Origin: a virus
Reading direction: 5' to 3' (one strand)
Length of the DNA stretch: 64,000 nucleotides
IMG/VR virus record: IMGVR_UViG_3300047564_002155
Coordinates: 32,001 to 96,000 of that record
This document shows positions 19,610-57,966 of the stretch, piece by piece. The notes under the pieces are model-generated. The model was given only the letters and a program-made list of their open reading frames with translations, was not told the DNA's origin and ran no database searches. Every line of letters starts with the position of its first letter. The stretch's first letter is position 1. A program made the translations under genes and the position numbers.

Positions 19610-22600
19610 ATGGGAAATTTAATTAAAGAGTGGGTTAGGGGAATTCTTGTTGAAGAAGTAAAACAAGAAGTAGTAGTTTATGCTGGAAGGTTTCAACCAT
19701 TTCACAAAGGACACTACGCTACCTATGAACATTTGGTAAAAAAGTTTGGTAAGCAAAATGTCTTTGTTGGGACCTCAAATCAACAAGGTGGTCCAAGACA
19801 TCCATTTAATTTTAAAGAAAAACGAGAAATTATGATGAAGATGTTTAACATCCCATCATCACAAATTGTCCAAGTAAAAAACCCATACCAACCAAGTGAG
19901 GTTTTAAATAAATTTGATTCTAAAACCACCGCATTTATCACGGTAGTTGGTGAAAAGGATGAGGCTCGTTTGGGTGGTAAATACTTTAAGAAATACGATG
20001 GTAAGCCCGAAAGTGGATATCTTGATAACGGATATGTGTATGTATCCCCGGCACAACCAAACGCAATAAGCGGAACTGATGTTCGTAATTGGTTATCAGC
20101 ATCAGATGATTCTCAAAGAAAAGCTGGATTCAAGAAAGCATACCCAAAGTTTGACCCAAAGATTTACAATTTAATTTCAACAAGGTTAATGAAGATTGAA
20201 TCCGTAATGGAATCGTTCTTTAAATCATTTGATGTTGAATCTCTTTTAGAGGGCTCTCTTTATGGGGCAGATGCTGGTGAACCCGACACTATGTTTGTAT
20301 TGCCAGGAAAAACTCGCAAACTTGGAATGAAAAATCCAGGTCAAAAAGATGATGTGTGGTTTGTAAATGGTGGTTATGTTCAAATGCACTTTCCGGTAGC
20401 TGATGTGATTGTTTCACCTGATGCAAAGGGGTCATCTGATTACTACCAATATTCATCCAAACGAAATATCCGTAATAATACCGATTTGGAAATCCCACCC
20501 GTAAGTGATGACTTTACAACGGCTAAACAGGGTAGAAAACAAGTTGATGTTCAAGACCTCAAAACCGAAGGTTCTACTATGGGACCAATTTCACTTGATA
20601 TGGTTGATAATGGTCCTGCGTTTTCTTGGGCAAGTAAAGAAAAATACCAATCTGCAAATAACGAAATTGCAAAACGATTGGGATTTGAAGTAGTTGATTG
20701 GATGTTGGGAACTGACTTGGAAACTCAATTTGTTCAAGACCGACCAACACAAGTTTCTTACTATCCAAAAAGTAATAGACCTGCAAATAAAGACTACTCT
20801 GATTGGAAATCTGATATTGAAAAAACAGCCACCGCTGTTGGTGTTGAGTTTATAAATTTTCTTGATAAAAAACAAATTGGATTAAACGAAGACCTTTTCG
20901 GAACATCGTTAAAAATGAAACCATATGAAACCTTGATGGTTAAATCCGTTATTGAATTTATGATGGATAAGTATAATTTTAATGCAAAGATTATAGTAAA
21001 GAAAAAAGAAAAAGTTGGATTGATAGGTGATATATCCTTAAATTCAAATTCAGTAGATGGAAATAAATTTTATTTACACTTTAATCCCAATCAGTCATAT
21101 CAGAGAATAATTCAAACAATGATACACGAGTTGACTCATATCAAACAAGTTTCCAGAAAAGAATTATTACCAAATAAAGACTATACCGCAATACTTTGGA
21201 AGGGTAAAGAATACATAACTGCAAAAGACTATAATAAGTTAATGAAGTCAAGTCCTTCGGAGTATATCAAATTACCTTGGGAAGTTGAAGCTATTTCAAA
21301 TATGAAAAGTTTGTATCCTCAATTTATAAAATCAAAATATTGGTTGGGATTAAAGGGTAAGGACTCTACATTAGATTATATTATCAATACAAACGAAAAT
21401 GTATTAAAAGAATCTTTATTGGTTGAAGGTGGTGCGTATGGTCATATGGCTCACCCATTTGATACTGAAATGAATTTAACTTTTGGTGACTTAAAACAAA
21501 TCATCAACGGAGCCCTAACGGGCGAATTAGAACTTGCAAGAGAAAAGACCGATGGTCAAGCCCTTGCTATTTCGTGGAGAGATGATAAGGGTTTAATTGC
21601 AGCAAGAAACAAAGGACACCTTGCTAATCGTGGTGAAAAGGCATTGGACATTAGCGGTATTGCTTCAAAGTTTGGTGGTAGAGGTGGTTTGACCGACGCA
21701 TACAACTTTGCAATGAAAGACCTTACATCAGCTATCAAAGGTTTATCAAAAGCACAACGAGACAAAATCTTCAAACAAGGTGCAAAGTTTATGAACCTTG
21801 AAGTAATCTGGCCAACATCGGTCAATGTAATCCCTTATGGTCAAGCCCTTTTGGTATTCCACAATACGACTGAATACAACGAAGCTGGTATAGCTATTGG
21901 TGCTGACCAAAGTGATGCAAAGGTTCTTGCTGGGATGATTAAACAAGTTAATGCTGATGTTCAATCAAAATACACAATCCAAGGACCGCCGGTAACCCAA
22001 TTACCAAAGTCGCAAAAACTTACATCTTTAAAATCAAAATTTGATGGTCAGTTGAATAAACTTCAAAAAGAATTTAATTTGAAAGATACTGATGGTGTTG
22101 CAGAATATCACCAAAAGTGGTGGGAAAATTTTGTAGATACAAAATCACCATCAACACTTGATAACAAAACTAAAATGGGTCTTGTTAAAAGATGGGCGTT
22201 CTACGATAAAGGGTTCCGTTTGGACAGTAAAACCATCACCGACCCTAAAGTGTTGACTTGGGCTCAAGGTATAGATAAAAACGACCACGCCAAAATTCAA
22301 AAAGATAATATTAGACCATTTGAAGATATTTTCTTGGGTGTTGGTGCCGAAGTTCTTTCGTTTATGAGTTCAGTTTTAACTGCAAATCCTGATGCTGCTG
22401 TTAGAAGTATGAAAGACCGACTTGACCAAACAGTTAAGGACGTTCAAAAAGCAGGTGACCCAAAGAAAATTGCAAAACTAAAATTAGAATTAGAACGACT
22501 TGCCGCTATTGGTGGTAAAGACAAAATTGTTCCTAATGAGGGTATCGTATTTGTGTATAAAGGTAATACTTATAAACTTACAGGCACATTCGCACCACTC

Positions 22601-22633
22601 AATCAAATTTTAGGATTGTTCTACGGAGAATGA
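19610..22633 (+). CDS. Modular protein: HxGH nucleotidyltransferase + HExxH metallopeptidase-like + ligase-like (KxDG) domains
   Basis: 'GRFQPFHKGH' and 'ISGTDVR' (cytidylyltransferase-like); 'MIHELTHIKQ...PWEVEA'; 'EKTDGQAL', 'NEGIVF', 'YKLTG' (ligase-superfamily motifs I, IV, V). Confidence 0.7.
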   Translation: MGNLIKEWVRGILVEEVKQEVVVYAGRFQPFHKGHYATYEHLVKKFGKQNVFVGTSNQQGGPRHPFNFKEKREIMMKMFNIPSSQIVQVKNPYQPSEVLNKFDSKTTAFITVVGEKDEARLGGKYFKKYDGKPESGYLDNGYVYVSPAQPNAISGTDVRNWLSASDDSQRKAGFKKAYPKFDPKIYNLISTRLMKIESVMESFFKSFDVESLLEGSLYGADAGEPDTMFVLPGKTRKLGMKNPGQKDDVWFVNGGYVQMHFPVADVIVSPDAKGSSDYYQYSSKRNIRNNTDLEIPPVSDDFTTAKQGRKQVDVQDLKTEGSTMGPISLDMVDNGPAFSWASKEKYQSANNEIAKRLGFEVVDWMLGTDLETQFVQDRPTQVSYYPKSNRPANKDYSDWKSDIEKTATAVGVEFINFLDKKQIGLNEDLFGTSLKMKPYETLMVKSVIEFMMDKYNFNAKIIVKKKEKVGLIGDISLNSNSVDGNKFYLHFNPNQSYQRIIQTMIHELTHIKQVSRKELLPNKDYTAILWKGKEYITAKDYNKLMKSSPSEYIKLPWEVEAISNMKSLYPQFIKSKYWLGLKGKDSTLDYIINTNENVLKESLLVEGGAYGHMAHPFDTEMNLTFGDLKQIINGALTGELELAREKTDGQALAISWRDDKGLIAARNKGHLANRGEKALDISGIASKFGGRGGLTDAYNFAMKDLTSAIKGLSKAQRDKIFKQGAKFMNLEVIWPTSVNVIPYGQALLVFHNTTEYNEAGIAIGADQSDAKVLAGMIKQVNADVQSKYTIQGPPVTQLPKSQKLTSLKSKFDGQLNKLQKEFNLKDTDGVAEYHQKWWENFVDTKSPSTLDNKTKMGLVKRWAFYDKGFRLDSKTITDPKVLTWAQGIDKNDHAKIQKDNIRPFEDIFLGVGAEVLSFMSSVLTANPDAAVRSMKDRLDQTVKDVQKAGDPKKIAKLKLELERLAAIGGKDKIVPNEGIVFVYKGNTYKLTGTFAPLNQILGLFYGE

Positions 22634-23268: not shown

Positions 23269-25812
23269 ATGAAAAGTAAAGAGTATTACATTCGTTTAGG
23301 TGAAGCGGTTCAAAAGCTAGAAGAAAAGAATTGCCCAACCGACCCATCAAAGTGGTCATATTATAAATCACAAGCAAAAGAAAAGTTTGATGTATATCCA
23401 TCAGCATATGCTAATGGGTGGGCTTCAAAACAATATGGTGATGCTGGTGGTGGTTGGAAGAAATGTGAAAACGAAGCTACTGATTCTCAAGAAAAAGAAT
23501 TTCATACTCAACTTGATAAGTTAGTTCACAAAACTTTTGGTAAAAGTCCGGAAGAAGAAAAAATGGATGAGAAGTTTGATAGAACTCACCTTGGTATTTT
23601 AAAATACGCTTATAAGGACATTGATAAAATCAATCCATCCGACCCAATGTATGTTAGAGTGGCTCAGATGTTGGATAAATTATCAAAACAGGAATTACAA
23701 CAATTGATTGATGCTGACATTAAGTTCATATCACTTCTTGCAAAGAATCGTTTATCAAAAAAAGAATCAGTAAACGAAGAAAAAGTAGATATGGAAGAGC
23801 TAGAAATGATGCTAAAGAAATTAAAAAAAGAGAATCCAGGTAAAAAAGTAACATACAGTTTTATTAAAGGTAAACAATACCCTAAAGGTTATGTTATTAA
23901 AATAAATGGAAAAATTTTAGAAGGTGAATCAGTAAACGAATCTCATTTTCAAGTTGGTGATAATGTCACTTGTCTTAAAAGTGGTATGACTGGTCAAGTT
24001 GTTGGGATGGATAAACCACACGGTGCGGATGATGAGGAATATTATACAGTTAAAAGACAAGATGGTGAAGTAATGAAATACTCACCAAACGAATTAAGAC
24101 TTACTGAAAACACTTTGAAAGAAGGTTTGTTCCAAGACATTATGAGAGCTGTTAAAAAAGGTGATGGTCCTTTCACTTTGGTTGTTATTAAGAACAACAA
24201 AGTAATTAAACAAGTAGAAGTTAAAACTCCACAAGCAATCCCTGCAAACTACTCTTCATTATTAAAAGATTTTCCTAATACGAGAATCAGAATAGAGGAT
24301 GCAACAGGTAAAATTGTAATGGGTGAATCGGTAAACGAAGCTAAGGCAATCGGAAAAAAGATATTCTCTGATGCTAAAGGAAAACTTTTCTTTGGATACC
24401 AAAATGATGATGATACTGTTCAACTTGTAGATTACAAAACTTGGAAAAAACTTCCAATGACGGACTTATCTAATGAGTTTATGGCTAACAGAATAATCAA
24501 CTCAATTGTTAGAAATGAAAGACAATTCAACAAAAAAGTTGAATACAATATGTGGTCTAAAAAGACTAACCCATCTTTTGAAGAGAGAATGGATTACTTC
24601 ATTAAAAACAATTGGATATCTAATATCACTAAAACTGGTATCAAAGAATCGGTAAACGAATCATCAATGAGTAATATTGATATTATCGCACAAGAAGCAA
24701 AAGATTTTAAAGATTTTGTGAAAGAGTTCTACAACGAATACAAAGATTTTCCAAAAGATAGAGATACTATTAAATGGTTAAAAGGTGTTTATGATAATAG
24801 AAGCACAAACGAATCGGTTGAATCATTAGATGAAAAATTACCAAATGAGTTTGCTACCATTCCTAATGATTCTCGTGTAGATGGTATGATGAAACATCTT
24901 CAGCACCATTTGGGTGTTATTAGTAAGAATGTAAAGACTGGTAAAGGTGTTTACAAAAAGGATTTGATGAAGATGGCAAACATCATTAAAGCCCTTCAAA
25001 TGTATGAATCAAAATCAGTAAACGAATCATCGGTTGAAATTGGTGATATCGTATTGTTCCCACCAGCGAATAGTGCTGCTACTGTTGTTGATAGGTTTGG
25101 TAGAAGTGTGACCTTAAAGTTGGCTAATGGTAAAAAAGTTAAAACCGTGGTTGATAAAGTTAAGTTATTAGCACAAGATAATGTAAACGAGGGTAATGCT
25201 TTCACAGGTGCTTTGTTCAAAGCTCGTAAAGAAGGTTTGACTGAATTTGAATTCAACGGAAAAAAATATCCGGTTCACAAACTTGAAGAAGAAAAAGAAG
25301 AAACTCTTGCTGAATCAAAATTGACCAAAGATTCTTTGAAGCAAATTATCAAAGAAGAATACCATAATGTAAAAACCTTTATGGAAGAAAAATACGGATT
25401 TACTCCTGAATTAGGTAAGGTATATTCCAATCTTGCAGCTAAACCTTTTTTAAAAGAAGAAGAGGAAGAGGTAGTTGATGAGTATGATGTAGAAAATTAC
25501 CAAGACCTAAAAGAGTTTGTTCAGTTTATGGCTGAATACAAAAGTGATATCAACGAGGCAGAATATCAAGGTAGAAAAGTAAAACTTGGTAAGATTATGC
25601 AAGGTGATGTTAAGAAATTCAAAGTATATGTTAAGAACGACAAAGGTAATGTTGTTAAAGTAAACTTTGGACAAGGTGGTGATGCTAAGGGTGGAACTAT
25701 GAGAATTCGTAAAGACAATCCTAAAGCAAGAGCATCGTTCAGAGCAAGACACAATTGTGATAACCCTGGTCCAAGATGGAAAGCAAGATATTGGTCTTGT
25801 CGTAAATGGTAA
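23269..25812 (+). CDS. Putative head-internal polyprotein of ESVNE-delimited modules
   Basis: Start more likely ATG 23269 (GAGGT upstream) than GTG 23257; four ESVNE plus KSVNE/NVNE/INE linkers separate about 12 unrelated 30-100 aa modules, two of them KOW/SH3-like. Confidence 0.65.
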   Translation: MKSKEYYIRLGEAVQKLEEKNCPTDPSKWSYYKSQAKEKFDVYPSAYANGWASKQYGDAGGGWKKCENEATDSQEKEFHTQLDKLVHKTFGKSPEEEKMDEKFDRTHLGILKYAYKDIDKINPSDPMYVRVAQMLDKLSKQELQQLIDADIKFISLLAKNRLSKKESVNEEKVDMEELEMMLKKLKKENPGKKVTYSFIKGKQYPKGYVIKINGKILEGESVNESHFQVGDNVTCLKSGMTGQVVGMDKPHGADDEEYYTVKRQDGEVMKYSPNELRLTENTLKEGLFQDIMRAVKKGDGPFTLVVIKNNKVIKQVEVKTPQAIPANYSSLLKDFPNTRIRIEDATGKIVMGESVNEAKAIGKKIFSDAKGKLFFGYQNDDDTVQLVDYKTWKKLPMTDLSNEFMANRIINSIVRNERQFNKKVEYNMWSKKTNPSFEERMDYFIKNNWISNITKTGIKESVNESSMSNIDIIAQEAKDFKDFVKEFYNEYKDFPKDRDTIKWLKGVYDNRSTNESVESLDEKLPNEFATIPNDSRVDGMMKHLQHHLGVISKNVKTGKGVYKKDLMKMANIIKALQMYESKSVNESSVEIGDIVLFPPANSAATVVDRFGRSVTLKLANGKKVKTVVDKVKLLAQDNVNEGNAFTGALFKARKEGLTEFEFNGKKYPVHKLEEEKEETLAESKLTKDSLKQIIKEEYHNVKTFMEEKYGFTPELGKVYSNLAAKPFLKEEEEEVVDEYDVENYQDLKEFVQFMAEYKSDINEAEYQGRKVKLGKIMQGDVKKFKVYVKNDKGNVVKVNFGQGGDAKGGTMRIRKDNPKARASFRARHNCDNPGPRWKARYWSCRKW

Positions 25813-25868
25813 TTATTAACATTGAATTACATACTTATTAGTAGTTTTAAATTAAATTGGAATAAACT

Positions 25869-26144
25869 ATGGAAACATTAAAGAAAGTTTGGAATTGGTT
25901 ACTTGGTAAAACTACCATTGATGAAAAAATCAAAGAAACCGTTGCCGAAGTTAAAAAAGAAGTAGCCGAAGTAAAGGTTGCTGTTGCAGAAGTAAAAGTT
26001 GCTGCTAAAAAAGTAGTAAAAGAAGCATCTGATGTAGCTAATGTAGTAGAAAAAGCTGCTCCTAAAAAGAAAAGATACTACCCAAAGAAAAAAGCTGCTG
26101 CTAAAACCGAACCAACTGCTAAAAAGCCGGCTGCCAAAAAATAA
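25869..26144 (+). CDS. Small Lys/Ala-rich (histone H1-like tail) protein
   Basis: Amphipathic N-terminus, VAEVK repeats, C-terminal 'KKKAAAKTEPTAKKPAAKK'. Confidence 0.55.
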   Translation: METLKKVWNWLLGKTTIDEKIKETVAEVKKEVAEVKVAVAEVKVAAKKVVKEASDVANVVEKAAPKKKRYYPKKKAAAKTEPTAKKPAAKK

Positions 26145-26489
26145 ATGAAACGATTCAATACTCAACAACTTGTAATTCTTGCTTTATTAGCTTTACTGGC
26201 ATATCAATTCTTTTTTGCTGGTAATCGTTACAAAAAAGATTACGAAAGAATGTTGAAAGAGCGTGAACAAGAATACAACACGCAGATTGAAAAGTTAGAA
26301 AGTCAATCAGATTCTCTTTTAAAAATCAATAAAGATATTGAAAAAGAATTAAAAAGAATTGATGGTCAAATTGGCAAAAAAGATGCTCAAATCAATAAGT
26401 TAAGGAAACAATATGAAAAAGATGTTGCTAAGCTTGACGCTATGTCTGATAACGACATTGCCGATGCTTTCACAGACGCTTTCAACTGA
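26145..26489 (+). CDS. Putative i-spanin-like membrane protein
   Basis: N-terminal TM helix (LVILALLALLAYQFFF) followed by a long coiled coil; 3' end overlaps the next gene in another frame. Confidence 0.5.
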   Translation: MKRFNTQQLVILALLALLAYQFFFAGNRYKKDYERMLKEREQEYNTQIEKLESQSDSLLKINKDIEKELKRIDGQIGKKDAQINKLRKQYEKDVAKLDAMSDNDIADAFTDAFN

Positions 26490-26820
26490 ATCTAACTTAA
26501 TTGCAGTTCCGAGAGCGGCTCTTGAAAACGCATTAAAGGTAAAAGCAGAACGTGACTTGTGTGTTAATGAATTACGATTAACACAAGAAAAGGTTGTTTT
26601 ATACTCAAAATCTATTGATTTGTATAAAGTTGAAGTTGAAAACTTAAATAAAGTTATTACTTCAAAAGATTTGGTTATTGTAGAAAAAAACAAAATAATT
26701 TCTCTAAAAGAAGACCAAATCAAAGTTTTAAAAAGAGAAAAATCTTCTAAAATGTGGCAAGGTCTTTTGGTTGGCTTTGCTGGTGGAGCTGCTACGGTTA
26801 CATTATTGCTCGCTCTATAA
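26413..26820 (+). CDS. Putative spanin partner (signal peptide, coiled coil, C-terminal TM)
   Basis: 'MKKMLLSLTLCLITTLPMLSQ' signal peptide; C-terminal 'WQGLLVGFAGGAATVTLLLAL'; 77-nt overlap with the upstream gene as in Rz/Rz1 pairs. Confidence 0.45.
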   Translation: MKKMLLSLTLCLITTLPMLSQTLSTESNLIAVPRAALENALKVKAERDLCVNELRLTQEKVVLYSKSIDLYKVEVENLNKVITSKDLVIVEKNKIISLKEDQIKVLKREKSSKMWQGLLVGFAGGAATVTLLLAL

Positions 26821-26830
26821 ATAAAAATGT

Positions 26831-28405
26831 ATGGCAAAAAGTTTAAAGGAACTTATTAGGGAAGAGTACATTAAATGTGCTAAAGACCCAGTGTATTTCT
26901 TTAAGAAATATTGTTATATCCAACACCCTCACCGAGGTAAAATTCTTTTCAATCTTTATGATTTCCAAGAAGATTTGATGAGGGAGTTTGATGACCACAG
27001 GTTTAATGTAATCCTCAAATCACGTCAGTTAGGTATTTCTACTCTATCCGCCGGATACTCTTTATGGATGATGTTATTCCACGAAGATAAAAACATTTTG
27101 GTAATTGCAACCAAACAAGAAGTAGCAAAAAACCTTGTGACTAAAGTAAGGTTTATGCACGAAAACCTACCAAGTTGGTTAAGAGGCCAAACCGAAGAAG
27201 ACAATAAACTTTCTTTACGATTGAGAAATGGTTCTCAAATTAAAGCAACATCAGCAGCAGGTGACGCGGGTCGTTCTGAAGCTCTTTCAATGTTAATTAT
27301 GGATGAGGCTGCGTTTATTTCCAACATTGAAGATATTTGGACTTCTGCTCAATCAACTCTTTCAACCGGTGGTAAAGCTATTGTCTTATCAACTCCAAAT
27401 GGTGTTGGTAACTGGTTTCATAAAATTTGGTTAAAAGGTGAGGCCGGTGATAGTTGGAATCCAATCAAACTTCACTGGACCGTTCACCCTGAACGAAACC
27501 AAAGTTGGAGAGATGACCAAACAAAATTACTTGGTGAAAAGGGCGCAGCACAAGAATGTGATTGTGACTTTATCAGTTCGGGTTACACGGTAGTAGACTC
27601 ATCAATTCTAACTTGGTATACTGAAACTTATATTAAAGACCCAATTGAAAAACGAGGATTTGATGGAAATTATTGGTTGTGGGAATATCCAAATTATTCT
27701 CGTGACTATGTAGTGGTAGCCGATGTGGCTCGTGGCGATTCATCCGACTATTCAGCATTTCACGTTATTGATATTGAAACCGTAGAACAAGTTGCTGAAT
27801 ACAAAGGTAAGATTGAAACCAAACAATATGGAGCATTCCTTACATCGGTTGCTGCGGAGTGGAACAATGCTATGTTGGTGGTTGAAAACGCAAACATTGG
27901 TTGGGCTGTAATCCAAGAAGTTATTGATAGAAACTATACAAACTTATATTACTCATATCGTGAGTTGGGTTATGTAGATGATGATGTCCACCTACGAAAA
28001 GGTTGGGACCTAAAGAAAAAAGAAGATATGGTTCCGGGCTTTACAATGTCTTCACGAACAAGACCTTTGGTGATTTCTAAACTTGATACCTATATGAGAG
28101 AAAAAACACCAATCGTTCACTCAAAGCGTTTAATTGATGAGCTGTTTGTATTCATTTGGAATGGTTCCAAGGCGGAGGCTCAACAAGGGTATAACGATGA
28201 CTTGGTTATGTCGTTCTCCACAGGACTTTGGGTAAGAGACACCGCATTAAAATTAAGACAACAGGGTATAGATTTAAGCCGTACCGCATTAACTCACATT
28301 TCAAAGACTCAAGGTGGTGTTTACAACGCCAGAATGGGACAACATAATCCTTGGGTATTAAAAGATGGTAGAGGTAATGATGTAGATATGACTTGGATAC
28401 TTTAA
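26831..28405 (+). CDS. terL: Terminase large subunit (T4 gp17-like)
   Basis: 'LYDFQ' Q-motif, 'KSRQLGIST' Walker A, 'LIMDEAAF' Walker B, 'STPNG', nuclease 'ADVARG' and 'DDLVMS'. Confidence 0.95.
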   Translation: MAKSLKELIREEYIKCAKDPVYFFKKYCYIQHPHRGKILFNLYDFQEDLMREFDDHRFNVILKSRQLGISTLSAGYSLWMMLFHEDKNILVIATKQEVAKNLVTKVRFMHENLPSWLRGQTEEDNKLSLRLRNGSQIKATSAAGDAGRSEALSMLIMDEAAFISNIEDIWTSAQSTLSTGGKAIVLSTPNGVGNWFHKIWLKGEAGDSWNPIKLHWTVHPERNQSWRDDQTKLLGEKGAAQECDCDFISSGYTVVDSSILTWYTETYIKDPIEKRGFDGNYWLWEYPNYSRDYVVVADVARGDSSDYSAFHVIDIETVEQVAEYKGKIETKQYGAFLTSVAAEWNNAMLVVENANIGWAVIQEVIDRNYTNLYYSYRELGYVDDDVHLRKGWDLKKKEDMVPGFTMSSRTRPLVISKLDTYMREKTPIVHSKRLIDELFVFIWNGSKAEAQQGYNDDLVMSFSTGLWVRDTALKLRQQGIDLSRTALTHISKTQGGVYNARMGQHNPWVLKDGRGNDVDMTWIL

Positions 28406-28431
28406 TTTGGTAGTGTAGTTTATTTTTTGTA

Positions 28432-28439
28432 TATTTATA
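28432..28439 (+). promoter_or_regulatory. Putative late promoter TATTTATA (portal)
   Basis: Recurrent intergenic motif. Confidence 0.5.
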
Positions 28440-28477
28440 GATTGTAAAAGTATACTCTTTTAGTTTAGAAAAACATT

Positions 28478-30337
28478 ATGGCAGACAATTCATTATTTGG
28501 AAGATTACAAAAACTATTCGCTACCCAAGTCATCGTAAGAAGAGTTGGGAAGAATCGTTTACAAGCCGTAGACTCACAAAGACTACAATCTCAAGGTAAT
28601 ATCCGTGGAACATCATACTACGATAGATTTGGTCGTTTACATACTTCTCGTAGGAATTGGGAAACCTACAACCAACAATTTAATTATCACTCAAACAAGT
28701 TAGAATTGTATACTGACTATGAGGCGATGGACAAAGATTCAATCATTACTTCTATTTTGGATATCTACTCCGATGAGTGTACCTTAAAGAACGATATGGG
28801 TGATGTGATTCGTATTAAATCTTCTGATGAGAATCTAAAAAAAATCCTTCACAACTTATTTTATGATATCTTAAATATTGAATTCAACCTTTGGGCTTGG
28901 GTTCGTGGTATGAACAAATATGGTGACTACTTTTTGTATTTAGATATTGAAGAGGGAGTTGGTATTGTAAATGTCCAACCAATTTCAGCATACGAATTTG
29001 AACGTGAAGAGGGATTTAATCCTGATAACCCTTATGAGGTTAGATTTAAATTATCCAATATGAGTTCTTCTACCAATTTCTCATATGGTAAAGATAAAAA
29101 TACATACTTCCCATTTTATCAGATTGCACACTTTAGATTAATGACCGACTCAAACTTCCTACCATATGGTCGTTCTTTGTTAGAGGGTGCTAGAAAAACT
29201 TGGAAACAATTAACTCTTATGGAAGACGCAATGATGATTCATAGAATTATGAGGGCGCCTGAAAAGAGAATCTTTAAAATTGATGTTGGTAATATCCCAC
29301 CACAAGAGGTTGACCAACATATGAGAAACATTATTGATGGAATGAAAAAAGTTCCATATATTGACCAGAACACGGGTGATTACAACCTCAAGTTCAATAT
29401 GATGAATATGTTGGAAGACTATTTCTTGCCGGTTCGTGGTGGTCAAAGTGGAACTGAAATTGATTCTTTGAGTGGTATGGAATTCGGTGGTATTGATGAT
29501 ATTGAATACCTAAAGAATAGAATGATGGCTGCTTTAAAAGTTCCTAAAGCATTCATTGGATATGAAGAGGGTGTGGAAGGTAAAGCTACCCTTGCTCAAC
29601 AAGACATCAGATTTGCAAGAACTGTGGAACGAGTTCAAAAGATTGTTCTATCAGAACTTACTAAAATTGCAATTGTTCACCTTTACTCACAAGGATACGA
29701 AAACGAAGACCTCGTTAATTTTGAGTTAGAGCTTACAAACCCATCTATTATTTACGAACAAGAGAAAATTGCTTTACTTTCTGAAAAGACAACTCTTGTA
29801 AGCAATATGAAGGATTTGAAGATGATTTCACAAGAGTGGATTTACAAAAACATCTTTAATATGTCTGATGATGAGTGGGAAAAAGAACAACAAAAAGTAA
29901 TTGATGACTTGAAGTTATCGTTCAGACACGAACAAATTACTACCGAAGGTAACGACCCAGCTAAAACGGGTGAATCGTTTGGAACACCTCACGACCTTGC
30001 TGTGATTGCACAACAACCTGCTGAAGAAGAGGGTGGTTCTCCTGAAGGTGGATTTCCTGGCGCTGGAAGACCAACTGAAAGTGGAACATACGGAACCGAC
30101 CAAGCAAATATGGGTAGAGACCCACTTGGTAAACAAACCGACATTAGTAGAGACAGTACATATCATAATTTTAGAAAAGGGCCAATGGCGGTTGAATCTC
30201 AAACGGCATTAAAATCTTCTCTGAAAAAAATGAAGGTTAAAACCAAGTCTATGATTATGGAATCCTTAAAACCAGAGTCTAAAACTGAAGAGCTGGGGTT
30301 GTTGGATGAGTCACAATTGTTAGATGATACGATTTAA
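28478..30337 (+). CDS. gp20: Portal protein (T4 gp20-like)
   Basis: 'LMEDAMMIHRIMRAPEKRIFKIDVGNIP', 'MLEDYFLPVRGG...GTEIDSL', 'ALKVP'. Confidence 0.95.
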   Translation: MADNSLFGRLQKLFATQVIVRRVGKNRLQAVDSQRLQSQGNIRGTSYYDRFGRLHTSRRNWETYNQQFNYHSNKLELYTDYEAMDKDSIITSILDIYSDECTLKNDMGDVIRIKSSDENLKKILHNLFYDILNIEFNLWAWVRGMNKYGDYFLYLDIEEGVGIVNVQPISAYEFEREEGFNPDNPYEVRFKLSNMSSSTNFSYGKDKNTYFPFYQIAHFRLMTDSNFLPYGRSLLEGARKTWKQLTLMEDAMMIHRIMRAPEKRIFKIDVGNIPPQEVDQHMRNIIDGMKKVPYIDQNTGDYNLKFNMMNMLEDYFLPVRGGQSGTEIDSLSGMEFGGIDDIEYLKNRMMAALKVPKAFIGYEEGVEGKATLAQQDIRFARTVERVQKIVLSELTKIAIVHLYSQGYENEDLVNFELELTNPSIIYEQEKIALLSEKTTLVSNMKDLKMISQEWIYKNIFNMSDDEWEKEQQKVIDDLKLSFRHEQITTEGNDPAKTGESFGTPHDLAVIAQQPAEEEGGSPEGGFPGAGRPTESGTYGTDQANMGRDPLGKQTDISRDSTYHNFRKGPMAVESQTALKSSLKKMKVKTKSMIMESLKPESKTEELGLLDESQLLDDTI

Positions 30338-30385
30338 CCTACAATACGATATTTATTTATTAGAAAGTCAAATAAAAGGTTTGAA

Positions 30386-31225
30386 ATGGGTAAGTTAAAA
30401 CACAGTAAGTTCAAAAATACGGGTATTTTATTTGAGTTGCTCGTGAGACAAATTGCTGCTGATACATTAGGTGGCAAAAACTCACTGGCGCTTGAAATAA
30501 TTAAATCCCATTTCAAAAAAGGGACTGAACTAACCAAAGAGTTAAATCTCTATCAGACGCTTCAAAAAGAAACATTTGATACTCAATATAAAGCTCAAGA
30601 ATTTGTTAATATTATTTTAGAGCAGAGAAAAGGTTTAAACGAATCTATTCTTCGTAGACAAAAATATAATCTTATCAAATCTATCAAAGAATCTTATAAG
30701 ATTGATGACTTTTTTAAGTATCGTGTAAACAATTACAAAGAATTAGCATCAACCTACAAGTTATTTGAATATAAGCAAGAAAATTCTCCAAAAGAATGGG
30801 TTGATTGTAAGAATACTATCTTTGAAAGTATTATCACCAAAAAAGAACAATTGGTAGAACAAAAAACCAACGAAGAATACACAACACAACCAAAAGAGGT
30901 TCGTTTATTGGCTTACAAATTCTTGGTTGATTCATTCAATGAAAAATATTCAAGTTTAACTTCGGAACAAAAGAATGTATTAAGAACATACATCAATAAT
31001 ATTGATAATTCAGAGAAATTAAGAAAGTATGTTATATCTGAAGTTAAAAAATTAAAGACCGCATTTGGTAAAGTAAAAGTATCTGATAAGGTTCTATCTA
31101 TTAAGTTAAACGAAACTGTTAATTTGATGGAAAGTATCGCAACATCAAAGGTAATCAGCGAAACGCAGGTTCTTTCTCTATTAAGATACCACGAATTGCT
31201 TCAAGAAGTGAGGAAACTAAAATGA
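30386..31225 (+). CDS. Head-cluster hypothetical protein
   Basis: 279-aa helical ORF directly downstream of the portal; several L-x-E sites. Confidence 0.55.
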   Translation: MGKLKHSKFKNTGILFELLVRQIAADTLGGKNSLALEIIKSHFKKGTELTKELNLYQTLQKETFDTQYKAQEFVNIILEQRKGLNESILRRQKYNLIKSIKESYKIDDFFKYRVNNYKELASTYKLFEYKQENSPKEWVDCKNTIFESIITKKEQLVEQKTNEEYTTQPKEVRLLAYKFLVDSFNEKYSSLTSEQKNVLRTYINNIDNSEKLRKYVISEVKKLKTAFGKVKVSDKVLSIKLNETVNLMESIATSKVISETQVLSLLRYHELLQEVRKLK

Positions 31226-31731
31226 GTAAATACTTGCTAAAAGAACTTGAAGACAAATTCAATCAACTTGAACTTCAACAAGAAGAAGATGAGTTGGATG
31301 AAGCAAATGTGACCGCAAACCTTGATGGTGGTGCTGGTCCCCCAAGAACCCCATATGCTTTTGCTAAAAGTGAGGATGATATGGATGATGACCACATTGA
31401 AGTATTAGGATACAAAAAATCAAAAAAATCAAATCAACATTTTGAATCACTTTCACAATTAGATTCTAAATTAGAAAGTTTGATTGAAGCAACCTATCGT
31501 GCTTATAGAAAAGATGAGTCAATGTCTGCAAAGAAAAAAGTGAATCTTGCTATCAAAGAAATCAATCGTAAGTTGTATGAGGTTGAACAATTAGTAAATC
31601 AGAATACAAAACTTAAAACCGAAATGGGATTGAGTCAAGGTCAGTATTGGGAATCTACAAAAGTAAGATTTAGTAAGATTTCCGAAAGAATGTTAAAGAT
31701 TTCTCGTAAGATTAAAGAGCTGGGGTCGTAA
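31222..31731 (+). CDS. Head-cluster hypothetical protein (probable prohead core component)
   Basis: N-terminal 'MSKYLLKE', internal LDE/LIE sites, C-terminal coiled coil. Confidence 0.55.
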   Translation: MSKYLLKELEDKFNQLELQQEEDELDEANVTANLDGGAGPPRTPYAFAKSEDDMDDDHIEVLGYKKSKKSNQHFESLSQLDSKLESLIEATYRAYRKDESMSAKKKVNLAIKEINRKLYEVEQLVNQNTKLKTEMGLSQGQYWESTKVRFSKISERMLKISRKIKELGS

Positions 31732-31732
31732 T

Positions 31733-31873
31733 ATGTCTTGCGGATGTGAAAAGAACCAAGTTAATGAAGCTTTAGAGGTGGATGACATCTCTCAAATCAG
31801 ATTGTTGATTCGTAAAGAATTAGCTAAAGTATTTCTTGACCTTTACCGCAAAAAACAAATCTGGGAAAAATAA
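31733..31873 (+). CDS. Small 46-aa ORF not in the ORF track (MSCGCEKNQVNEALEVDD...KKQIWEK)
   Basis: Fills the gap exactly: ATG just after the previous stop, TAA overlapping the protease ATG (TAATG); contains VNE. Confidence 0.65.
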   Translation: MSCGCEKNQVNEALEVDDISQIRLLIRKELAKVFLDLYRKKQIWEK

Positions 31874-32514
31874 TGAAACAATTATTAGTTGATACTACTG
31901 TATTCCAAATTACACCTCAAATCTTGAAGGAGTCGCAAGACCGCCACGGAAGATTTTTGGTTACAGGTGTATTGCAGAGAGCAAACGCTAAAAACCAAAA
32001 TGGTAGAGTATATCCAAGAAACATTCTTGAAAGAGAAGTTGAAAAATACAAGGGTAGGGAAATCAAAGAAAACCGAGCATATGGCGAACTTGACCATCCG
32101 GAATCATCGGTAATTGAATTGAAAAACACATCGCACGTTGTTCGTGATGTGTGGTGGAATGGTGATGATGTAGTTGGTGCTGTTGAAATCTTAAACACAC
32201 CTGCTGGCAAAATCTTACAAGAGTTAATCAAAGCAGAATGTACGGTTGGTATCTCATCAAGAGGTATGGGTTCCGTGAGTCAGATTAAAGAAGATGGAAC
32301 TGTTGCTGTTGAAGGTGACTTTGAGTTGATTTGTTGGGACTTTGTTTCTAACCCATCAACGCATGGAGCTTTTATGAGACCTACAAATGAAGGGGTTATC
32401 AAAGAGTCAGTTCAAAGAAAACAAACTAATTATAATAAGGTTAATACACTTATGAGAGAAATCATCTGCGAAGTGGGTGGATATTGTGAGTGTGATTTTG
32501 GAGATATAAAATGA
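31873..32514 (+). CDS. gp21: Prohead protease (T4 gp21-like)
   Basis: 'GVLQRANAKNQNGRVYP', 'GELDHP', 'GISSRGMGS', 'WDFVSNPSTHGA'. Confidence 0.95.
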   Translation: MKQLLVDTTVFQITPQILKESQDRHGRFLVTGVLQRANAKNQNGRVYPRNILEREVEKYKGREIKENRAYGELDHPESSVIELKNTSHVVRDVWWNGDDVVGAVEILNTPAGKILQELIKAECTVGISSRGMGSVSQIKEDGTVAVEGDFELICWDFVSNPSTHGAFMRPTNEGVIKESVQRKQTNYNKVNTLMREIICEVGGYCECDFGDIK

Positions 32515-33341
32515 AAATGATGTCATTACTAAAAGAAAACGCTAGTAGAACCGCAATGGAAATTGGCGGTTTGACTGGTTTAAACAAAGACGCAATCCAA
32601 AAGTTTGTTGATACTCACAATATGGATATTGAGAAGGTTTACCAATATGTTAAAAAGTCAAAGTTAACAGATAGACTTAATTTTGTAACCGCAGTTGTTG
32701 GAACTCCTGGAAATCCGGTTCAAAAGAGAATGATTAAGATGTTTGGTGAATCGGTAAACGAATCACAAGACCACGAAGTTTCAATGGCTCAAAATTCATT
32801 GGACTCTATTATCAAATACGCTACTGAATTGAAGCAAAAAATGGGTGAGATGGAAAAGGATGTTCCTGCTTGGATTCAAGACCACATCACTAATGCTGAA
32901 AACTATGTATCTCAAGCCGCTTCAAACTACCACGAATATGGTAGTGGTATGAACGAGGGTGTATTGAATGAAATGAATCGCCAGTTAAATGTAAAAGTTA
33001 ACAAGATGTTATCATACGAACTTGGTGATATGAGAAAAGGTGGAGCTAATCACTTATGGGCTATTATGCACATTTTGATGGGTGCATTAACCGATGCTAA
33101 CTTCCATTCAGATGCAAAGAAAGTTCCTGCTATCTTCGGTTCAAAAGCAAAATACGAAGGTGACCCACAAGGTGAGAAAGACCTTGAGAAAATGTACGAA
33201 TACGATTTAGGTCCGACCATTGCTGCTCTTGCAAAATGGGATGGTAAAGACATCGTAAACGCAGTTGGTTTTTATGTATCAATGAATGTTGGTAGACCAA
33301 TGGGTGAAAAAATTGAAAAACTTGTTGAAGGTAAAAAATAA
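32511..33341 (+). CDS. Putative head-internal modular protein
   Basis: N-terminal MKMMSLLKE; ESVNE and MNE/LNE linkers separate three modules, including 'DHEVSMA...VPAWIQDHIT'. Confidence 0.6.
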   Translation: MKMMSLLKENASRTAMEIGGLTGLNKDAIQKFVDTHNMDIEKVYQYVKKSKLTDRLNFVTAVVGTPGNPVQKRMIKMFGESVNESQDHEVSMAQNSLDSIIKYATELKQKMGEMEKDVPAWIQDHITNAENYVSQAASNYHEYGSGMNEGVLNEMNRQLNVKVNKMLSYELGDMRKGGANHLWAIMHILMGALTDANFHSDAKKVPAIFGSKAKYEGDPQGEKDLEKMYEYDLGPTIAALAKWDGKDIVNAVGFYVSMNVGRPMGEKIEKLVEGKK

Positions 33342-33352
33342 GGACAACTAAA

Positions 33353-34963
33353 ATGAAAAAATTATCACAACTTCTTAAAGAATCACAAGATTTAGATTAC
33401 CGCAGAATGAATGTTGGTGAAGAAGAAGGTCAGGGTATGACCAAAGAAGAAAAGCGTGCGTTCGTTGAAGCTGTTGCTGCTTACCGTCAATTAGGTGAAA
33501 TGATTTCACACAAAGGTAATTTGGCTGAAATTCACGACTCTATCAAAGGTATCGTAGAAAGTGCTAATAACATTACGTTAAAAGAAACTGGTGATTGGTT
33601 TGATAGAGTAACTGTTCAGAGACATATGAAATCTATGAACGAATCATTCAAGGTATTCTCAAGCACCTTAAAAGAGGTGTCTACTCTTCAACAAAGATTG
33701 GAATCTACTTACGATGAAATTGGTGAGGTTCTTGGTAAATACTACGAAATCAAAGAAGGTAATGAGTTTGGTGCTGAAAGAGCTAAAGCAATTGCTGGTG
33801 GTGAAGATTCATTTGAAGTTGATGGTAAGTCATACAAGGTAACTGGAGTAGACGCTGAAGACAAGAAGAACGCAGAAGAGTTTGCTAATGAATCTATGAA
33901 GTTAACATCTTTAATCAAAAGAAACGAAGAGTTAACTGGTCGTCAAAAAGAATTGGATGTTGATAGTGATGGTGACATTGAAGCTGATGACTTGGCTGAT
34001 TTAAGAGCTGGCAAAAAAGCAGATGAATCAGTAAACGAAGCGGTATCTCCGGCGGATATGGATAAAATTAAAGGGGCAGTAGAAGCAGCATCTTCATTTA
34101 TGAGTGTGGGTAGTGAGTTAAAGAAATTAGGTATGAAATATACTTTCGCTACCGAACCATTACCAATTTATATTATACAACCAACTCCAAATAACAAAGT
34201 TGCTATTGTAAATAAGAAATATGCAACCAAACCTGATTTTGTGGTTGGTGATATTGCAGTAGGTATAATGGAAGGCAAATTAAACGAAGAAGAAATTAAG
34301 TGGAATGCAGTTGAAAACGCAATCATCAACTTCTTAAAGATGAACACCAAAATTTTGGACAAGAGAGTTCAAGCTAAAGATACCGATGGTGTTAAAGGTG
34401 GATTAAAATCTATCATTAGTGGTTTGACTAATGCACAAAGAAATTTGAAGTTAGAATCAGTAAATGAAGCTAGTTATGTGAGTGGATACACTGTAAAAGC
34501 TAAAACTCCATATGAGTTTGTAAATGGCGCATACGCAGTTCTAAATGCATATTTAAGAGATGAAGAACTTGGACCAAAAGGTAAAAAAGAATTACAAGAT
34601 ATCTTAAAGTCATTAGAGTATATGAGAAAGTATTTCTTCTTTAAGTTGAGTGAATCAACCGAATCGGTAAATGAAATCACACTTGCTAGAGGTTTAAAAG
34701 ATTTAATTAAAGGAACAACCTCATCAGTTGAAGGTATTAAAGTTTCTAAAGAATTAGCAAGTGCTATTGCAGGATGGGCTACCGGTTCTACTTATGGTCA
34801 AAGATATGGTAATCAAATGTTGAAGTCTCCGTTTGCTAATGTTTGGCAGATGGTATTTAGTCCTTCATTTGGAGTTGAAGCACATTTGAAAAGATACGAC
34901 AAGGAAGCTTTAAACACTTTGAAGCCCGAACTTATGAAAATCAAGTCAAAATTGGGAATGTAA
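33353..34963 (+). CDS. Putative head-internal polyprotein (ESVNE-delimited)
   Basis: MKKLSQLLKE N-terminus; three ESVNE linkers plus KLNE/IKE; EF-hand-like 'DVDSDGDIEADDL'; shares one module with 23269..25812. Confidence 0.65.
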   Translation: MKKLSQLLKESQDLDYRRMNVGEEEGQGMTKEEKRAFVEAVAAYRQLGEMISHKGNLAEIHDSIKGIVESANNITLKETGDWFDRVTVQRHMKSMNESFKVFSSTLKEVSTLQQRLESTYDEIGEVLGKYYEIKEGNEFGAERAKAIAGGEDSFEVDGKSYKVTGVDAEDKKNAEEFANESMKLTSLIKRNEELTGRQKELDVDSDGDIEADDLADLRAGKKADESVNEAVSPADMDKIKGAVEAASSFMSVGSELKKLGMKYTFATEPLPIYIIQPTPNNKVAIVNKKYATKPDFVVGDIAVGIMEGKLNEEEIKWNAVENAIINFLKMNTKILDKRVQAKDTDGVKGGLKSIISGLTNAQRNLKLESVNEASYVSGYTVKAKTPYEFVNGAYAVLNAYLRDEELGPKGKKELQDILKSLEYMRKYFFFKLSESTESVNEITLARGLKDLIKGTTSSVEGIKVSKELASAIAGWATGSTYGQRYGNQMLKSPFANVWQMVFSPSFGVEAHLKRYDKEALNTLKPELMKIKSKLGM

Positions 34964-34964
34964 G

Positions 34965-35120
34965 ATGAACGAAATGAACATCCTACAAGACCTATCAGTT
35001 GAGTTTTCTCAAATGATTAAGAAAAACTTACCACAAATCAAAAAGTTATCCCCTTCTACTCAAAGAGAGTTGGGGAAACTTTTTTCTGATTTTAAAAATG
35101 GACTTGATGATTTAAGTTAA
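34965..35120 (+). CDS. Small 51-aa ORF not in the ORF track (MNEMNILQDLSVEFSQMIKK...GLDDLS)
   Basis: Starts just after the preceding stop and fills the gap before bS21. Confidence 0.55.
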   Translation: MNEMNILQDLSVEFSQMIKKNLPQIKKLSPSTQRELGKLFSDFKNGLDDLS

Positions 35121-35155
35121 AAAAATTGTATTTATTACAATATAAAAAACAAGTT

Positions 35156-35407
35156 ATGGAAGAAAACAAAAAATTCAAAAAAGTTAGAAAAGCCGAAATG
35201 GTTATTGTGGGAAAGCCCAACGCTGTGAAGGTAGTAAACAACAACATTGAAGCCGCTTTACGATTCTGGAAAAAGAATATGAAAGAAAGTGGTAAAATTG
35301 AATGGATTAAATCACATAGAGAATATGTGAAACCAACTACGGAAAAAAGAGAGCTACGAAATCAAGCACTCCGTAAAGAGTGGACACGACGCCAACAACA
35401 AGAATAA
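35156..35407 (+). CDS. rpsU: Phage-encoded ribosomal protein bS21
   Basis: 'VKVVNNNIEAALRFWKKNMKESGKIEWIKSHREYVKPTTEKR' matches the bS21 pattern (V...IE.ALR.FK....G......R..Y.KP...R); ATG 35156 preferred over TTG 35126. Confidence 0.85.
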   Translation: MEENKKFKKVRKAEMVIVGKPNAVKVVNNNIEAALRFWKKNMKESGKIEWIKSHREYVKPTTEKRELRNQALRKEWTRRQQQE

Positions 35408-35557: not shown

Positions 35558-36565
35558 ATGGCAAAATCAGATTTGCTCAAAGAAGCTATCGCTGACGCAA
35601 AAGCCGTAAAAGAAACTGCTTTAGCTAACGCTAAGTTGGCTTTAGAAGAAGCATTTGCTCCACGAATTCAGTCTATGTTGTCTCACAAACTCGCAGAAGA
35701 ACTTGACGATGAGGAAGTTTCTGAAGAAGAGGAAGAGATGACTGCTGAAGTACCTGCAATGGAAGAAGAGGATGAAATGTCCGCTGACGCTGAAATGGGT
35801 GCTGAAGAAGATATGACTGAAGAAGAGGATGAAATGTATTCTGAAGAAGACCAAATGGGTGCTGAAGAAGAGATGGATATGGCTGCTGACTCTGATGAAG
35901 AAGGTGAAGAATACGAACTTACCGGTGATGAAGAAGAAGACACCGAAGAGGACGACCTTGACCTTGAAGCAGTAATCAGAGAATTAGAAGACGCAATGGC
36001 TTCCGATGAAGAAGAAATGGCATTTGAAGAAGATGAAATGGAAGATGAAATGACATCTGAAGAAGATGAAATGGAAGATGAAATGACATCTGAAGAAGAT
36101 GAAGAAGAACTTGACATCAACGAAATCATCCGTACCTTGAAAGAAATGGAAGGTAATGGCGAAGAAGAGATGACCGAGGAAGAAGAAGACGCTACTGAAG
36201 GTTACAAAGAAGAATTGGAAGAAGCTTATAAGACTATTCAGTCTATGAGAAAAACCATCAACGAAGTAAACTTACTTAACGCAAAACTTCTTTACACGAA
36301 CAAGTTGTTCAGAACTTTTGATTTGAACGAGTCTCAAAAAGTTAAAGTAATTGAAAACTTTGATAGAGCTTCAAACTTGAGAGAAGTAAAATTAGTATTT
36401 GCTACATTAGGTGAAAACTTAAATGTCGCTAGAAAAAAGAAAACAGTTGTTAAAGAATCACTCGCTTCTAAACCAATGAAGTCAACTGCAGCTCCTAAAA
36501 AGATTTTATCTGAAGGTGACGCAGTAGCTGAAAGATTTAAGAAGTTAGCTGGTTTGATTAAATAA
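35558..36565 (+). CDS. Prohead core/scaffolding protein (T4 gp22-like)
   Basis: Very acidic, coiled-coil protein immediately upstream of the major capsid gene; AGGAG upstream. Confidence 0.75.
   Translation: MAKSDLLKEAIADAKAVKETALANAKLALEEAFAPRIQSMLSHKLAEELDDEEVSEEEEEMTAEVPAMEEEDEMSADAEMGAEEDMTEEEDEMYSEEDQMGAEEEMDMAADSDEEGEEYELTGDEEEDTEEDDLDLEAVIRELEDAMASDEEEMAFEEDEMEDEMTSEEDEMEDEMTSEEDEEELDINEIIRTLKEMEGNGEEEMTEEEEDATEGYKEELEEAYKTIQSMRKTINEVNLLNAKLLYTNKLFRTFDLNESQKVKVIENFDRASNLREVKLVFATLGENLNVARKKKTVVKESLASKPMKSTAAPKKILSEGDAVAERFKKLAGLIK
36026..36103 (+). repeat. 33-bp tandem repeat (EEDEMEDEMTS x2 plus partial) in scaffold gene
   Basis: gaagaagatgaaatggaagatgaaatgacatct at 36026 and 36059; partial copy at 36092. 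Confidence 0.85.
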
Positions 36566-53311: not shown

Positions 53312-53334
53312 TCCAAAAATAAAGAAGTTCTCTT

Positions 53335-57918: not shown

Positions 57919-57932
57919 TACATTCAATTCCA

Positions 57933-57940
57933 TATTTATA
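57933..57940 (+). promoter_or_regulatory. Putative late promoter TATTTATA (hydroxylase/glycosyltransferase genes)
   Basis: Recurrent intergenic motif; implies late co-expression with structural genes. Confidence 0.5.
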
Positions 57941-57966
57941 ATAAAGTTTAAAAAATAAGTTTTGTT

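Follow-up and report, generated by a model that had tools for sequence, protein, structure and literature searches.

ESVNE-jointed arrays around the prohead protease gene of an uncultured phage probably encode head-cargo polyproteins

Introduction

The closest described counterparts of the genes reported here are the internal proteins of bacteriophage T4 (IPI, IPII, IPIII and Alt), which are substrates of the prohead protease gp21 and follow its rule of cleavage after the glutamate of a hydrophobic-x-Glu site (PMC9026906, PMC3012670, PMC12373910). The DNA analysed in this study, which we call the window, is a stretch of 64,000 nucleotides covering bases 32001-96000 of one 168,128-bp phage sequence with 37% G+C (IMG/VR record IMGVR_UViG_3300047564_002155). 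It contains three genes, named A, B and C, in which small modules follow one another with the pentapeptide ESVNE as a recurrent joint, and we propose that they probably encode head-cargo polyproteins cut by the gp21-type protease of the same phage. The likeness to T4 lies in the protease family and the site rule, cutting being predicted in our case, and also in a leader of ten residues, small basic products and a content that is hypervariable among relatives. In contrast, the T4 proteins are products of separate genes, each with its own leader, whereas here up to about 11 modules share one polypeptide with a uniform internal joint, and the DNA of that joint is conserved and marks the points of module exchange. 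IPI, IPII and IPIII have no sequence similarity to the modules described here.

Several other systems share part of this design. The T4 proteins gp22, gp67 and gp68 are encoded in a neighbourhood of the same make-up (portal, core proteins, protease, scaffold, capsid protein), are acidic, have N-terminal hydrophobic-x-Glu sites and are cut many times by gp21, but no variable modules are appended to them. The combination of an acidic core or scaffold with basic internal proteins is the T4 pattern (PMC3012670), and the arrays likewise show an acidic part, the first two modules of gene C (C1-C2), together with basic modules. In the giant phages phiKZ, 201phi2-1 and SPN3US (gp175/gp245), a gp21-related protease cuts head proteins after glutamate, several of them multiply (PMC5694885, PMC9026906). 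Such repeated cutting is found mostly within long propeptides, which are then removed from the head, however, and the giant phages have no arrays of unrelated modules with one repeated joint; for their inner-body and ejection proteins cassette exchange has not been described. Polyvalent proteins (Iyer et al. 2017, PMC5512222) resemble the arrays in that a single chain holds 2-15 unrelated domains and its gene lies near head or portal genes; packaging and delivery alongside the DNA are predicted for them, and processing is possible. They differ in that their domains are recognisable enzymatic or DNA-binding ones, often with an embedded metallopeptidase, whereas the modules here are small orphans without a Pfam match, and the predicted sites between them are those of a prohead protease with a gene of its own. 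The polyproteins of RNA viruses, such as those cut by picornavirus 3C, offer a functional analogy only: one product is cut at a repeated short motif, but into a fixed essential set, by an unrelated protease and with no link to capsid loading.

Our literature searches on ESVNE and on phage polyproteins with a prohead protease found no description of such arrays. Judged by sequence, the arrays would work like the T4 internal-protein and capsid-targeting system, but they differ from it in architecture and fall outside the internal-protein sequence families. If they are indeed cut and packaged, one conserved address and one repeated joint would suffice to load arbitrary, quickly exchangeable small proteins into a capsid, and what T4 does with a few separately encoded internal proteins would here have become a system that can grow. 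The arrays point to a natural design for protein loading into T4-like capsids, and they define a large set of small basic proteins without annotation, which may be active from the very start of infection.

Results and Discussion

Recurrence of the joint

Six-frame translation of the window gave eight copies of exact ESVNE, all within genes A, B and C, and one KSVNE (Table 1), in agreement with an earlier note made on this DNA from its letters and a list of its open reading frames (ORFs). No further ESVNE was found in any frame of the 168,128-bp genome, where the only two other xSVNE strings lie on the minus strand. From amino-acid composition, 0.058 copies would be expected in the proteome of about 51,000 residues (Poisson p = 3e-15 for at least eight). 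The NVNE, LNE, INE and MNE variants named in the earlier note exist as well and act as joints in orthologues; these weaker joints are DNVNE and DINE in gene A, GMNE and VLNE in gene B, and SMNE, F-ANE and KLNE in gene C. Hydrophobic-Asn-Glu triplets as a class are enriched in all three genes (7 seen against 0.72 expected in A, 3 against 0.23 in B, 5 against 0.45 in C) and in the scaffold-like protein encoded downstream (3 against 0.28).

The joints delimit about 25 modules; the arrays have about 11 modules in A, 3 in B and 7 in C. The earlier note had described unrelated modules of 30-100 residues; we found no significant mutual similarity among the modules of the window except in the joint tails and in a 34-residue motif common to A9 and C2, while the sizes become 49-122 residues once the weaker joints are counted. 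Its placement of the three genes as flanking the head cluster is correct for A only, B and C lying inside the cluster. A Shine-Dalgarno sequence precedes each of the three genes; the most likely start of A is the ATG at 23269, with GAGG 8 nt upstream, and the ATG of B overlaps the stop codon of the protease gene (ATGA).

Table 1. Features of the arrays and of the head gene cluster, in window coordinates. A slash separates the modules on the two sides of a joint; an arrow marks a predicted cut.
Feature	Position	Strand	Remark
Gene A	23269-25812	+	847-residue array, about 11 modules; upstream of terminase gene
ESVNE joint 1 (GAATCAGTAAACGAA), A1/A2	23764-23778	+	
ESVNE joint 2, A2/A3	23926-23940	+	
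ESVNE joint 3, A4/A5	24325-24339	+	
ESVNE joint 4, A5/A6	24646-24660	+	
KSVNE joint, A7/A8	25012-25026	+	reads ESVNE in locus L007
Weaker joint DNVNE, A8/A9	25177-25191	+	kept in orthologues
Module A10	25558-25809	+	84 residues, net charge +17, starts AEYQGR, ends CRKW, preceded by D-I-N-E
Large terminase	26831-28405	+	head module
Portal, gp20 family	28478-30337	+	head module
Two ORFs without assignment	30386-31225 and 31222-31731	+	between portal and protease
ORF 31222, 169-residue head-cluster protein	31222-31731	+	leader MSKYLLKE↓L; possible core protein
Prohead core serine protease, T4 gp21 type (S77)	31873-32514	+	PF03420, PHROG 207, PDB 5JBL
Gene B	32511-33341	+	276-residue array: leader and three modules
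Gene B leader MKMMSLLKE, 9 residues	32511-32537	+	resembles capsid-targeting sequence
ESVNE joint, B1/B2	32748-32762	+	
Gene C	33353-34963	+	536-residue array: leader, carrier C1-C2, five variable modules
Gene C leader MKKLSQLLKE, 10 residues	33353-33382	+	followed by S
ESVNE joint, C3/C4	34025-34039	+	
ESVNE joint, C5/C6	34454-34468	+	site of extra 60-residue module in locus L004
ESVNE joint, C6/C7	34661-34675	+	
51-residue ORF	34965-35120	+	begins MNE↓M; one base past gene C stop codon
bS21 gene	35126-35407		between putative cargo arrays and scaffold gene
Acidic scaffold-like protein, gp22 position	35558-36565	+	N-terminal MAKSDLLKE↓A; three hydrophobic-Asn-Glu sites
Capsid protein, gp23 family	36596-38245	+	
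Predicted capsid-protein maturation cut V-S-E↓A, after residue 60	36767-36775	+	aligns with L-T-E↓A of T4-like gp23

The protease, its predicted sites and the leaders

The protein encoded just ahead of gene B matches PF03420 with an E-value of 5.6e-31 (108 bits, against a cut-off of 27), PHROG 207 with 7e-51 and PDB 5JBL with 1.1e-18. Aligned to 5JBL, it has His in ELDHP and Ser in GISSRG, where the crystallised chain has Ala; we take these positions to be the catalytic ones, mutated in the crystal. By its sequence, the protein is clearly a gp21 homologue of MEROPS family S77.

The hydrophobic-x-Glu type of site is common to five classes of expected substrate, namely the capsid protein, the protease itself, the scaffold, the leaders and the joints. 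At the predicted maturation cut of the capsid protein, V/I-x-E is present in all 33 aligned relatives and is followed by A in most, and the first ten residues of the capsid protein contain I-L-A-E↓S here and L-L-N-E↓S in relatives. Two self-cuts are predicted in the protease. One, QILKE↓S, is close to the N terminus and reads Q-I-N-E↓S in distant relatives; the other, GVIKE↓S, comes directly behind the catalytic domain, where relatives have GVINE↓S or P-M-N-E↓S. Trimming of the protease's own termini is described for T4 gp21 and for its homologues in giant phages (PMC9026906, PMC5694885). Of 106 distinct ESVNE sites from related loci, 85% are followed by A, G, S or E. The earlier note's reading, that the linker fits the gp21 rule and that a gp21-type protease is encoded alongside, agrees with the PF03420 match next to B and C and with the same site type in the expected substrates, and the ESVNE joint looks like a cutting site of the phage's own head protease, as far as can be predicted from these sequences.

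The N termini of the array proteins add to the resemblance. The T4 capsid-targeting sequence is MKTYQEFIAE (PMC8442874), where positions 4 and 7 are important for targeting, and positions 8 and 10 for processing (PMC9026906). The leader of gene C has the T4 length, is hydrophobic at positions 4, 7 and 8 and has Glu at position 10, as in T4, and it is kept as M-K-(K)-L-x-x-(L/I)-(L/I)-x-E↓S in all of about 65 orthologues, including those that consist of C1-C2 only. An LLKE leader also heads gene B, ORF 31222 and the scaffold-like protein. Within the arrays, some modules behind a joint start with Met or with a leader-like MKLTSL..NE, which suggests that the arrays grew by fusion of once-separate, leader-bearing genes.

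The site rule ahead of module A10

The strongest single result concerns A10, the conserved C-terminal module of gene A, which matches PHROG 7595. This module forms 3548 clusters at 50% identity in public metagenomes, where it is almost always C-terminal in proteins of 90-842 residues. We compared 130 diverse representatives whose sequence reaches far enough ahead of the module. All 130 have Glu directly in front of it and L, I, V or M at the second position before this Glu, while the intervening position is variable and can be N, F, D, Q, T, E or V. Stand-alone forms have short leaders that end in hydrophobic-x-Glu, down to M-S-E. Read from these alignments, the published T4 gp21 rule is kept by selection ahead of A10 in thousands of backgrounds.

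Within A10, Cys67 and Cys81 are invariant and His65 is nearly so. Its AlphaFold model (pLDDT 76) had no match in the PDB at E <= 0.001 by Foldseek, and the neighbours of the stand-alone gene in L084-L086, a block of small genes, give no hint of a link to head genes. A10 is among the most abundant unassigned phage modules met in this analysis. With its more than 3500 clusters, and with the DNA of the joint, as a 15-mer, present in at least 119 IMG/VR stretches, part of them expected by chance, the system is abundant.

Gain, loss and exchange of modules among related loci

The protease as query retrieved 80 IMG/VR loci in which protease identity ranges from 100% to 60%. ESVNE recurs in these loci down to about 67% protease identity, always either in the ORFs that directly follow the protease gene or in one that lies some 9 kb ahead of it, and reaches 11 copies (13 of SVNE) in L010, the highest number in the set. 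A single-module difference separates the studied phage from L004, which has an identical protease and surrounding genes of about 97-100% nucleotide identity but differs by one 60-residue module plus joint. In the DNA this is a 180-bp indel at C5/C6, with a 16-nt direct repeat of the joint on its flanks.

Gene C orthologues range from 139 to 925 residues and carry from 0 to 9 ESVNE-type joints, as would be expected of the expandable arrays proposed in the earlier note; the L010 gene has nine joints and 819 residues against 536 in the studied phage. Module C4 is missing in L006, L013 and L022, the loss spanning ESVNE to KLNE, and L014 lacks C4 and also C3, lost after F-A-N-E. Of 32 pairwise indels in gene C that span 25 residues or more, 26 start and stop no farther than 5 residues from where a hydrophobic-Asn-Glu ends (chance about 0.02 per indel); the 32 pairs are not independent events, and 19 of the 25 distinct indels behave in this way. 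The earlier note had named a mismatch between linker and module boundaries in homologues as evidence against its proposal; because most of the large indels end at joints in the homologues, and modules swap among A, B and C, the boundaries there do meet the linker.

Gene A orthologues are mosaics of the same module families in varying order. Module B1 (ASRTAMEIGG...) comes after ESVNE within gene A of both L018 and L037, gene A of L037 and that of L050 open with a B4-like module, and the SH3-like module A3 is located in gene C of L022. Only C1, C2 and A10 are clade-wide, and A2 and A7 were not found in the other related loci. There are dozens of module families, many of them singletons, and single families are 90-98% identical between phages whose proteases are 79-85% identical. 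Nucleotide identity is likewise a mosaic along the arrays; compared with L011, C4 is 97% and the protease gene 82% identical. These sequence comparisons give good support to the view that genes A, B and C are modular arrays that gain, lose and reorder whole modules at the joints. The 51-residue ORF after gene C is probably a detached, single-module member of the same set, as judged from its homologue in L013, which continues through DSVNE into a further module.

Conservation of the joint in DNA

The joint is also uniform at the level of DNA. In its 15-mer, GAATCRGTAAAYGAR, the silent positions are nearly fixed: all eight ESVNE sites of the window read GAATC(A/G)GTAAA(C/T)GAA, and the KSVNE site reads AAATCAGTAAACGAA. 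Across the 106 distinct ESVNE sites of the related loci, the Val codon is GTA in 104 and the Ser codon TCA or TCG in 104 and never TCT or AGY, although TCT and AGY make up about half of the Ser codons in the array genes, and GTT, TCT and AGT are common there. Consensus joints border variable modules, whereas decayed ones border conserved modules (SMNE at C1/C2, ANE at C2/C3, DNVNE at A8/A9 and DINE at A9/A10). The simplest reading of this pattern is that modules are exchanged by homologous recombination at the joint and that a joint loses its capacity for exchange once it departs from the consensus. A protease-site linker with conserved silent positions would be unusual, in that one short sequence is selected at both the protein and the DNA level. 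The tails of A2 and A4 (23905-23940 and 24304-24339) share the 11 residues GKI(L/V)xGESVNE, so that their likeness reaches six residues upstream of the joint.

The near-fixed codons at 106 sites could be taken to mean that the motif is primarily an element of DNA or RNA, such as a regulatory site, a nuclease site or the end of a mobile element, with the peptide incidental. We consider this very improbable. The motif is always on the coding strand and in the frame of a long ORF, and the spacing of adjacent motifs up to 1.5 kb apart in the related loci is a multiple of 3 in 107 of 109 pairs, a frame test that rules out a DNA-only element. Moreover, variant joints alter bases yet keep the hydrophobic residue and the Glu, and no extra copy of the 15-mer with up to one mismatch was found on either strand of the 168-kb genome, its intergenic DNA included.

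A second alternative accepts the peptide and denies the cutting: the arrays would be uncut multidomain proteins, like beads on a string, with ESVNE as a flexible linker that owes its uniformity to its use in recombination. The silent-site conservation and the direct repeats of the joint around the L004 indel would both fit such proteins, and cleavage of the arrays is predicted from sequence comparison. This alternative nevertheless seems quite unlikely to us. The joint obeys the rule of hydrophobic-x-Glu followed by a small residue, and weaker joints such as KMDE, RLTE, SMNE, KLNE and DINE keep those positions only. The same module can occur alone in other phages behind a short leader ending in hydrophobic-x-Glu, B1 comes after either LLKE-N or ESVNE, and ahead of A10 the Glu and the hydrophobic residue are constant in all 130 homologues, with the middle residue varying.

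Five points have to be weighed against the head-cargo proposal. The phage is uncultured, and both cleavage and presence in the virion are deduced by comparison. Gene A is without an LLKE leader, its N terminus MKSKEYYIRLGE↓A being a candidate site. A protease would need neither an E-S held strictly at positions four and five ahead of the cut nor conserved silent sites, and a role in DNA could by itself explain these features. The AlphaFold model of gene C, built on a 38-sequence alignment, has a mean pLDDT of 52, too low for a fold search, so that independent folding of the modules is deduced from their mobility; the three ESVNE sites lie in coil gaps of this model. Finally, small fragments might exit the capsid, as T4 scaffold fragments do.

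Possible route and fate of the modules

Under the proposed scheme, the arrays would be made late, together with the head genes, and B would be translationally coupled to the protease gene; in related phages that encode bS21, the protease gene and a downstream hypothetical gene are co-transcribed late (PMC9723584). The products would enter the prohead core by means of the N-terminal leader of 9-10 residues and the acidic carrier C1-C2. The gp21-type protease would then cut after the Glu of hydrophobic-x-Glu, removing the leader and opening every joint, whether ESVNE or one of the weaker kind (SMNE, KLNE, DNVNE, DINE and others), and would release about 25 proteins, of which the basic variable ones would probably stay with the packaged DNA like the T4 internal proteins. 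In the DNA, the 15 bases of the joint would be the place where single modules are inserted, deleted and exchanged, the arrays being in-frame cassette racks. Cutting and packaging, like retention, ejection and the roles of the modules in the next host, are inferences. T4 packages 20-200 copies of foreign proteins that are attached to the C terminus of IPIII or to its leader, and delivers them (PMC9026906). By analogy, a leader-bearing carrier followed by variable modules may be the natural counterpart of this IPIII fusion experiment.

The carrier (gene C residues 11-180) is acidic, conserved in about 65 loci and predicted to be helical in the AlphaFold model of gene C. In distant relatives C1-C2 stands alone as a protein of 139-190 residues, with no ESVNE-type joint. 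The ESM Atlas returned only unnamed viral clusters for C1-C2, and hhalign and BLASTP found no similarity of C1-C2 or ORF 31222 to T4-like gp68. The cultured Mel-JY01 has a 155-residue C1-C2 orthologue right after its protease gene (L001 13706-14170), with L-S-E↓SF in place of the M-N-E↓SF found here. Flavobacterium phage vB_FspM_immuto, also cultured, has an upstream array of 843 residues (L002 4096-6627) whose joints are GKLNE, ESLNE and MNE-SVNE.

An acidic, helical C1-C2 resembles scaffold proteins, and B and C sit between the protease and scaffold genes. The arrays might accordingly be cut into pieces that serve as filler of the core or scaffold and are lost from the capsid by the time the DNA is packaged or while it enters, like the gp22 fragments of T4, so that nothing would reach the next host; multiple cuts are thought to help the clearance of propeptides from the capsid (PMC5694885). 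This seems unlikely, since the variable modules are basic and have the size of mature T4 internal proteins, which are retained, and since the conservation of modules across divergent phages would be hard to explain if they were disposable.

Internal modules, taken without the joint, are net positive in 89% of 76 distinct cases and average +5.6 per 100 residues, compared with -1.7 for the proteome (p = 7e-27); A3, A6, A9, B2 and C3 are acidic. This basic charge supports retention of the modules with the DNA, and it would fit generic counter-ions as well as specific effectors. Searches of Pfam and PHROGs with whole A, B and C and with single modules gave nothing of known function above cut-off, and weak matches only: A0 to DUF5872 (E 0.0029), B1 to a late-transcription-coactivator family (E 0.0034), and two PHROGs of unknown function. 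No module matched an anti-defence, enzyme or internal-protein (IPI, IPII, IPIII, Alt) family in Pfam or PHROGs, and Pfam found none of the conflict domains of polyvalent proteins (MuF, ART, metallopeptidase, primase and others) in A, B or C. In module C3 (33893-34039), which is missing in L014, the segment D-V-D-S-D-G-D-I-E-A-D-D fits the pattern of an EF-hand calcium-binding loop; the module has no Pfam match.

If cleavage and packaging are extended to function, the released modules could be specific injected effectors directed against host defences or toward host takeover, a possibility that we regard as open to considerable doubt. It is favoured by a turnover far faster than that of core genes, with content differing between phages of identical protease, and by the dozens of module families with their many singletons. 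T4 provides a precedent: Ip1, Ip2 and Ip3 each block a different GmrSD restriction enzyme (PMC12373910), and internal proteins are hypervariable among T-even phages (PMC12373910, PMC3012670). The effector proposal is weakened by the lack of any match to a known anti-defence or enzyme family and by the uniform basic charge, which suggests a shared, non-specific property, and its ejection step is drawn by analogy.

That shared property could be neutralisation of charge. The modules would then be generic counter-ions or condensing proteins of the DNA inside the capsid; almost any sequence would do if it stayed small and basic, and their diversity would be mostly the outcome of neutral drift and recombination. 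The predominance of net positive charge among unrelated modules, the contacts of T4 internal-protein lysines with DNA phosphates (PMC3012670) and the extreme conservation and abundance of A10, with its charge of +17, all speak for this explanation. Families that are more alike than the proteases of their phages point instead to selection on each sequence, and the acidic modules do not fit; we therefore hold this explanation, too, as possible at best.

A wider proposal, rather doubtful in its full extent, would make the joint a dedicated site for both in-frame cassette exchange and protease cleavage, through which an abundant aquatic T4-like clade reshuffles its racks by recombination between co-infecting phages, loads the small proteins into the capsid behind a single carrier, has them cut apart and injects them as combinatorial sets of host-directed effectors. 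If this proposal were true, the arrays would be a protein-level counterpart of the integron.

Gene neighbourhood

ORFs, Pfam and PHROGs place a head module of T4 type on the plus strand of the window. By capsid protein, the nearest named phages are Microcystis phage Mel-JY01 (57%), Flavobacterium phage immuto (53%) and Rhodothermus phage RM378 (40%), and megablast of the region against 50,697 phage records gave zero matches. The bS21 gene is a stand-alone ORF wherever it was found among the related loci and is never fused to an array; encapsidation of bS21 has been raised as a speculation by Chen et al. (PMC9723584).

Directly after gene A, an ORF of 91 residues (25869-26144) has a Lys/Ala/Pro-rich tail that resembles histone H1, and its product may be another DNA-associated head protein. 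Directly upstream of gene A, a multi-enzyme protein of 1007 residues (19610-22633) begins with MGNLIKE; its counterpart in Mel-JY01 is annotated as a cytidylyltransferase-like protein. Farther downstream, at 50000-58000, G+C rises to 49-58%, compared with about 35% elsewhere, and this segment encodes long collagen-like GPQGP/GPTGP repeats.

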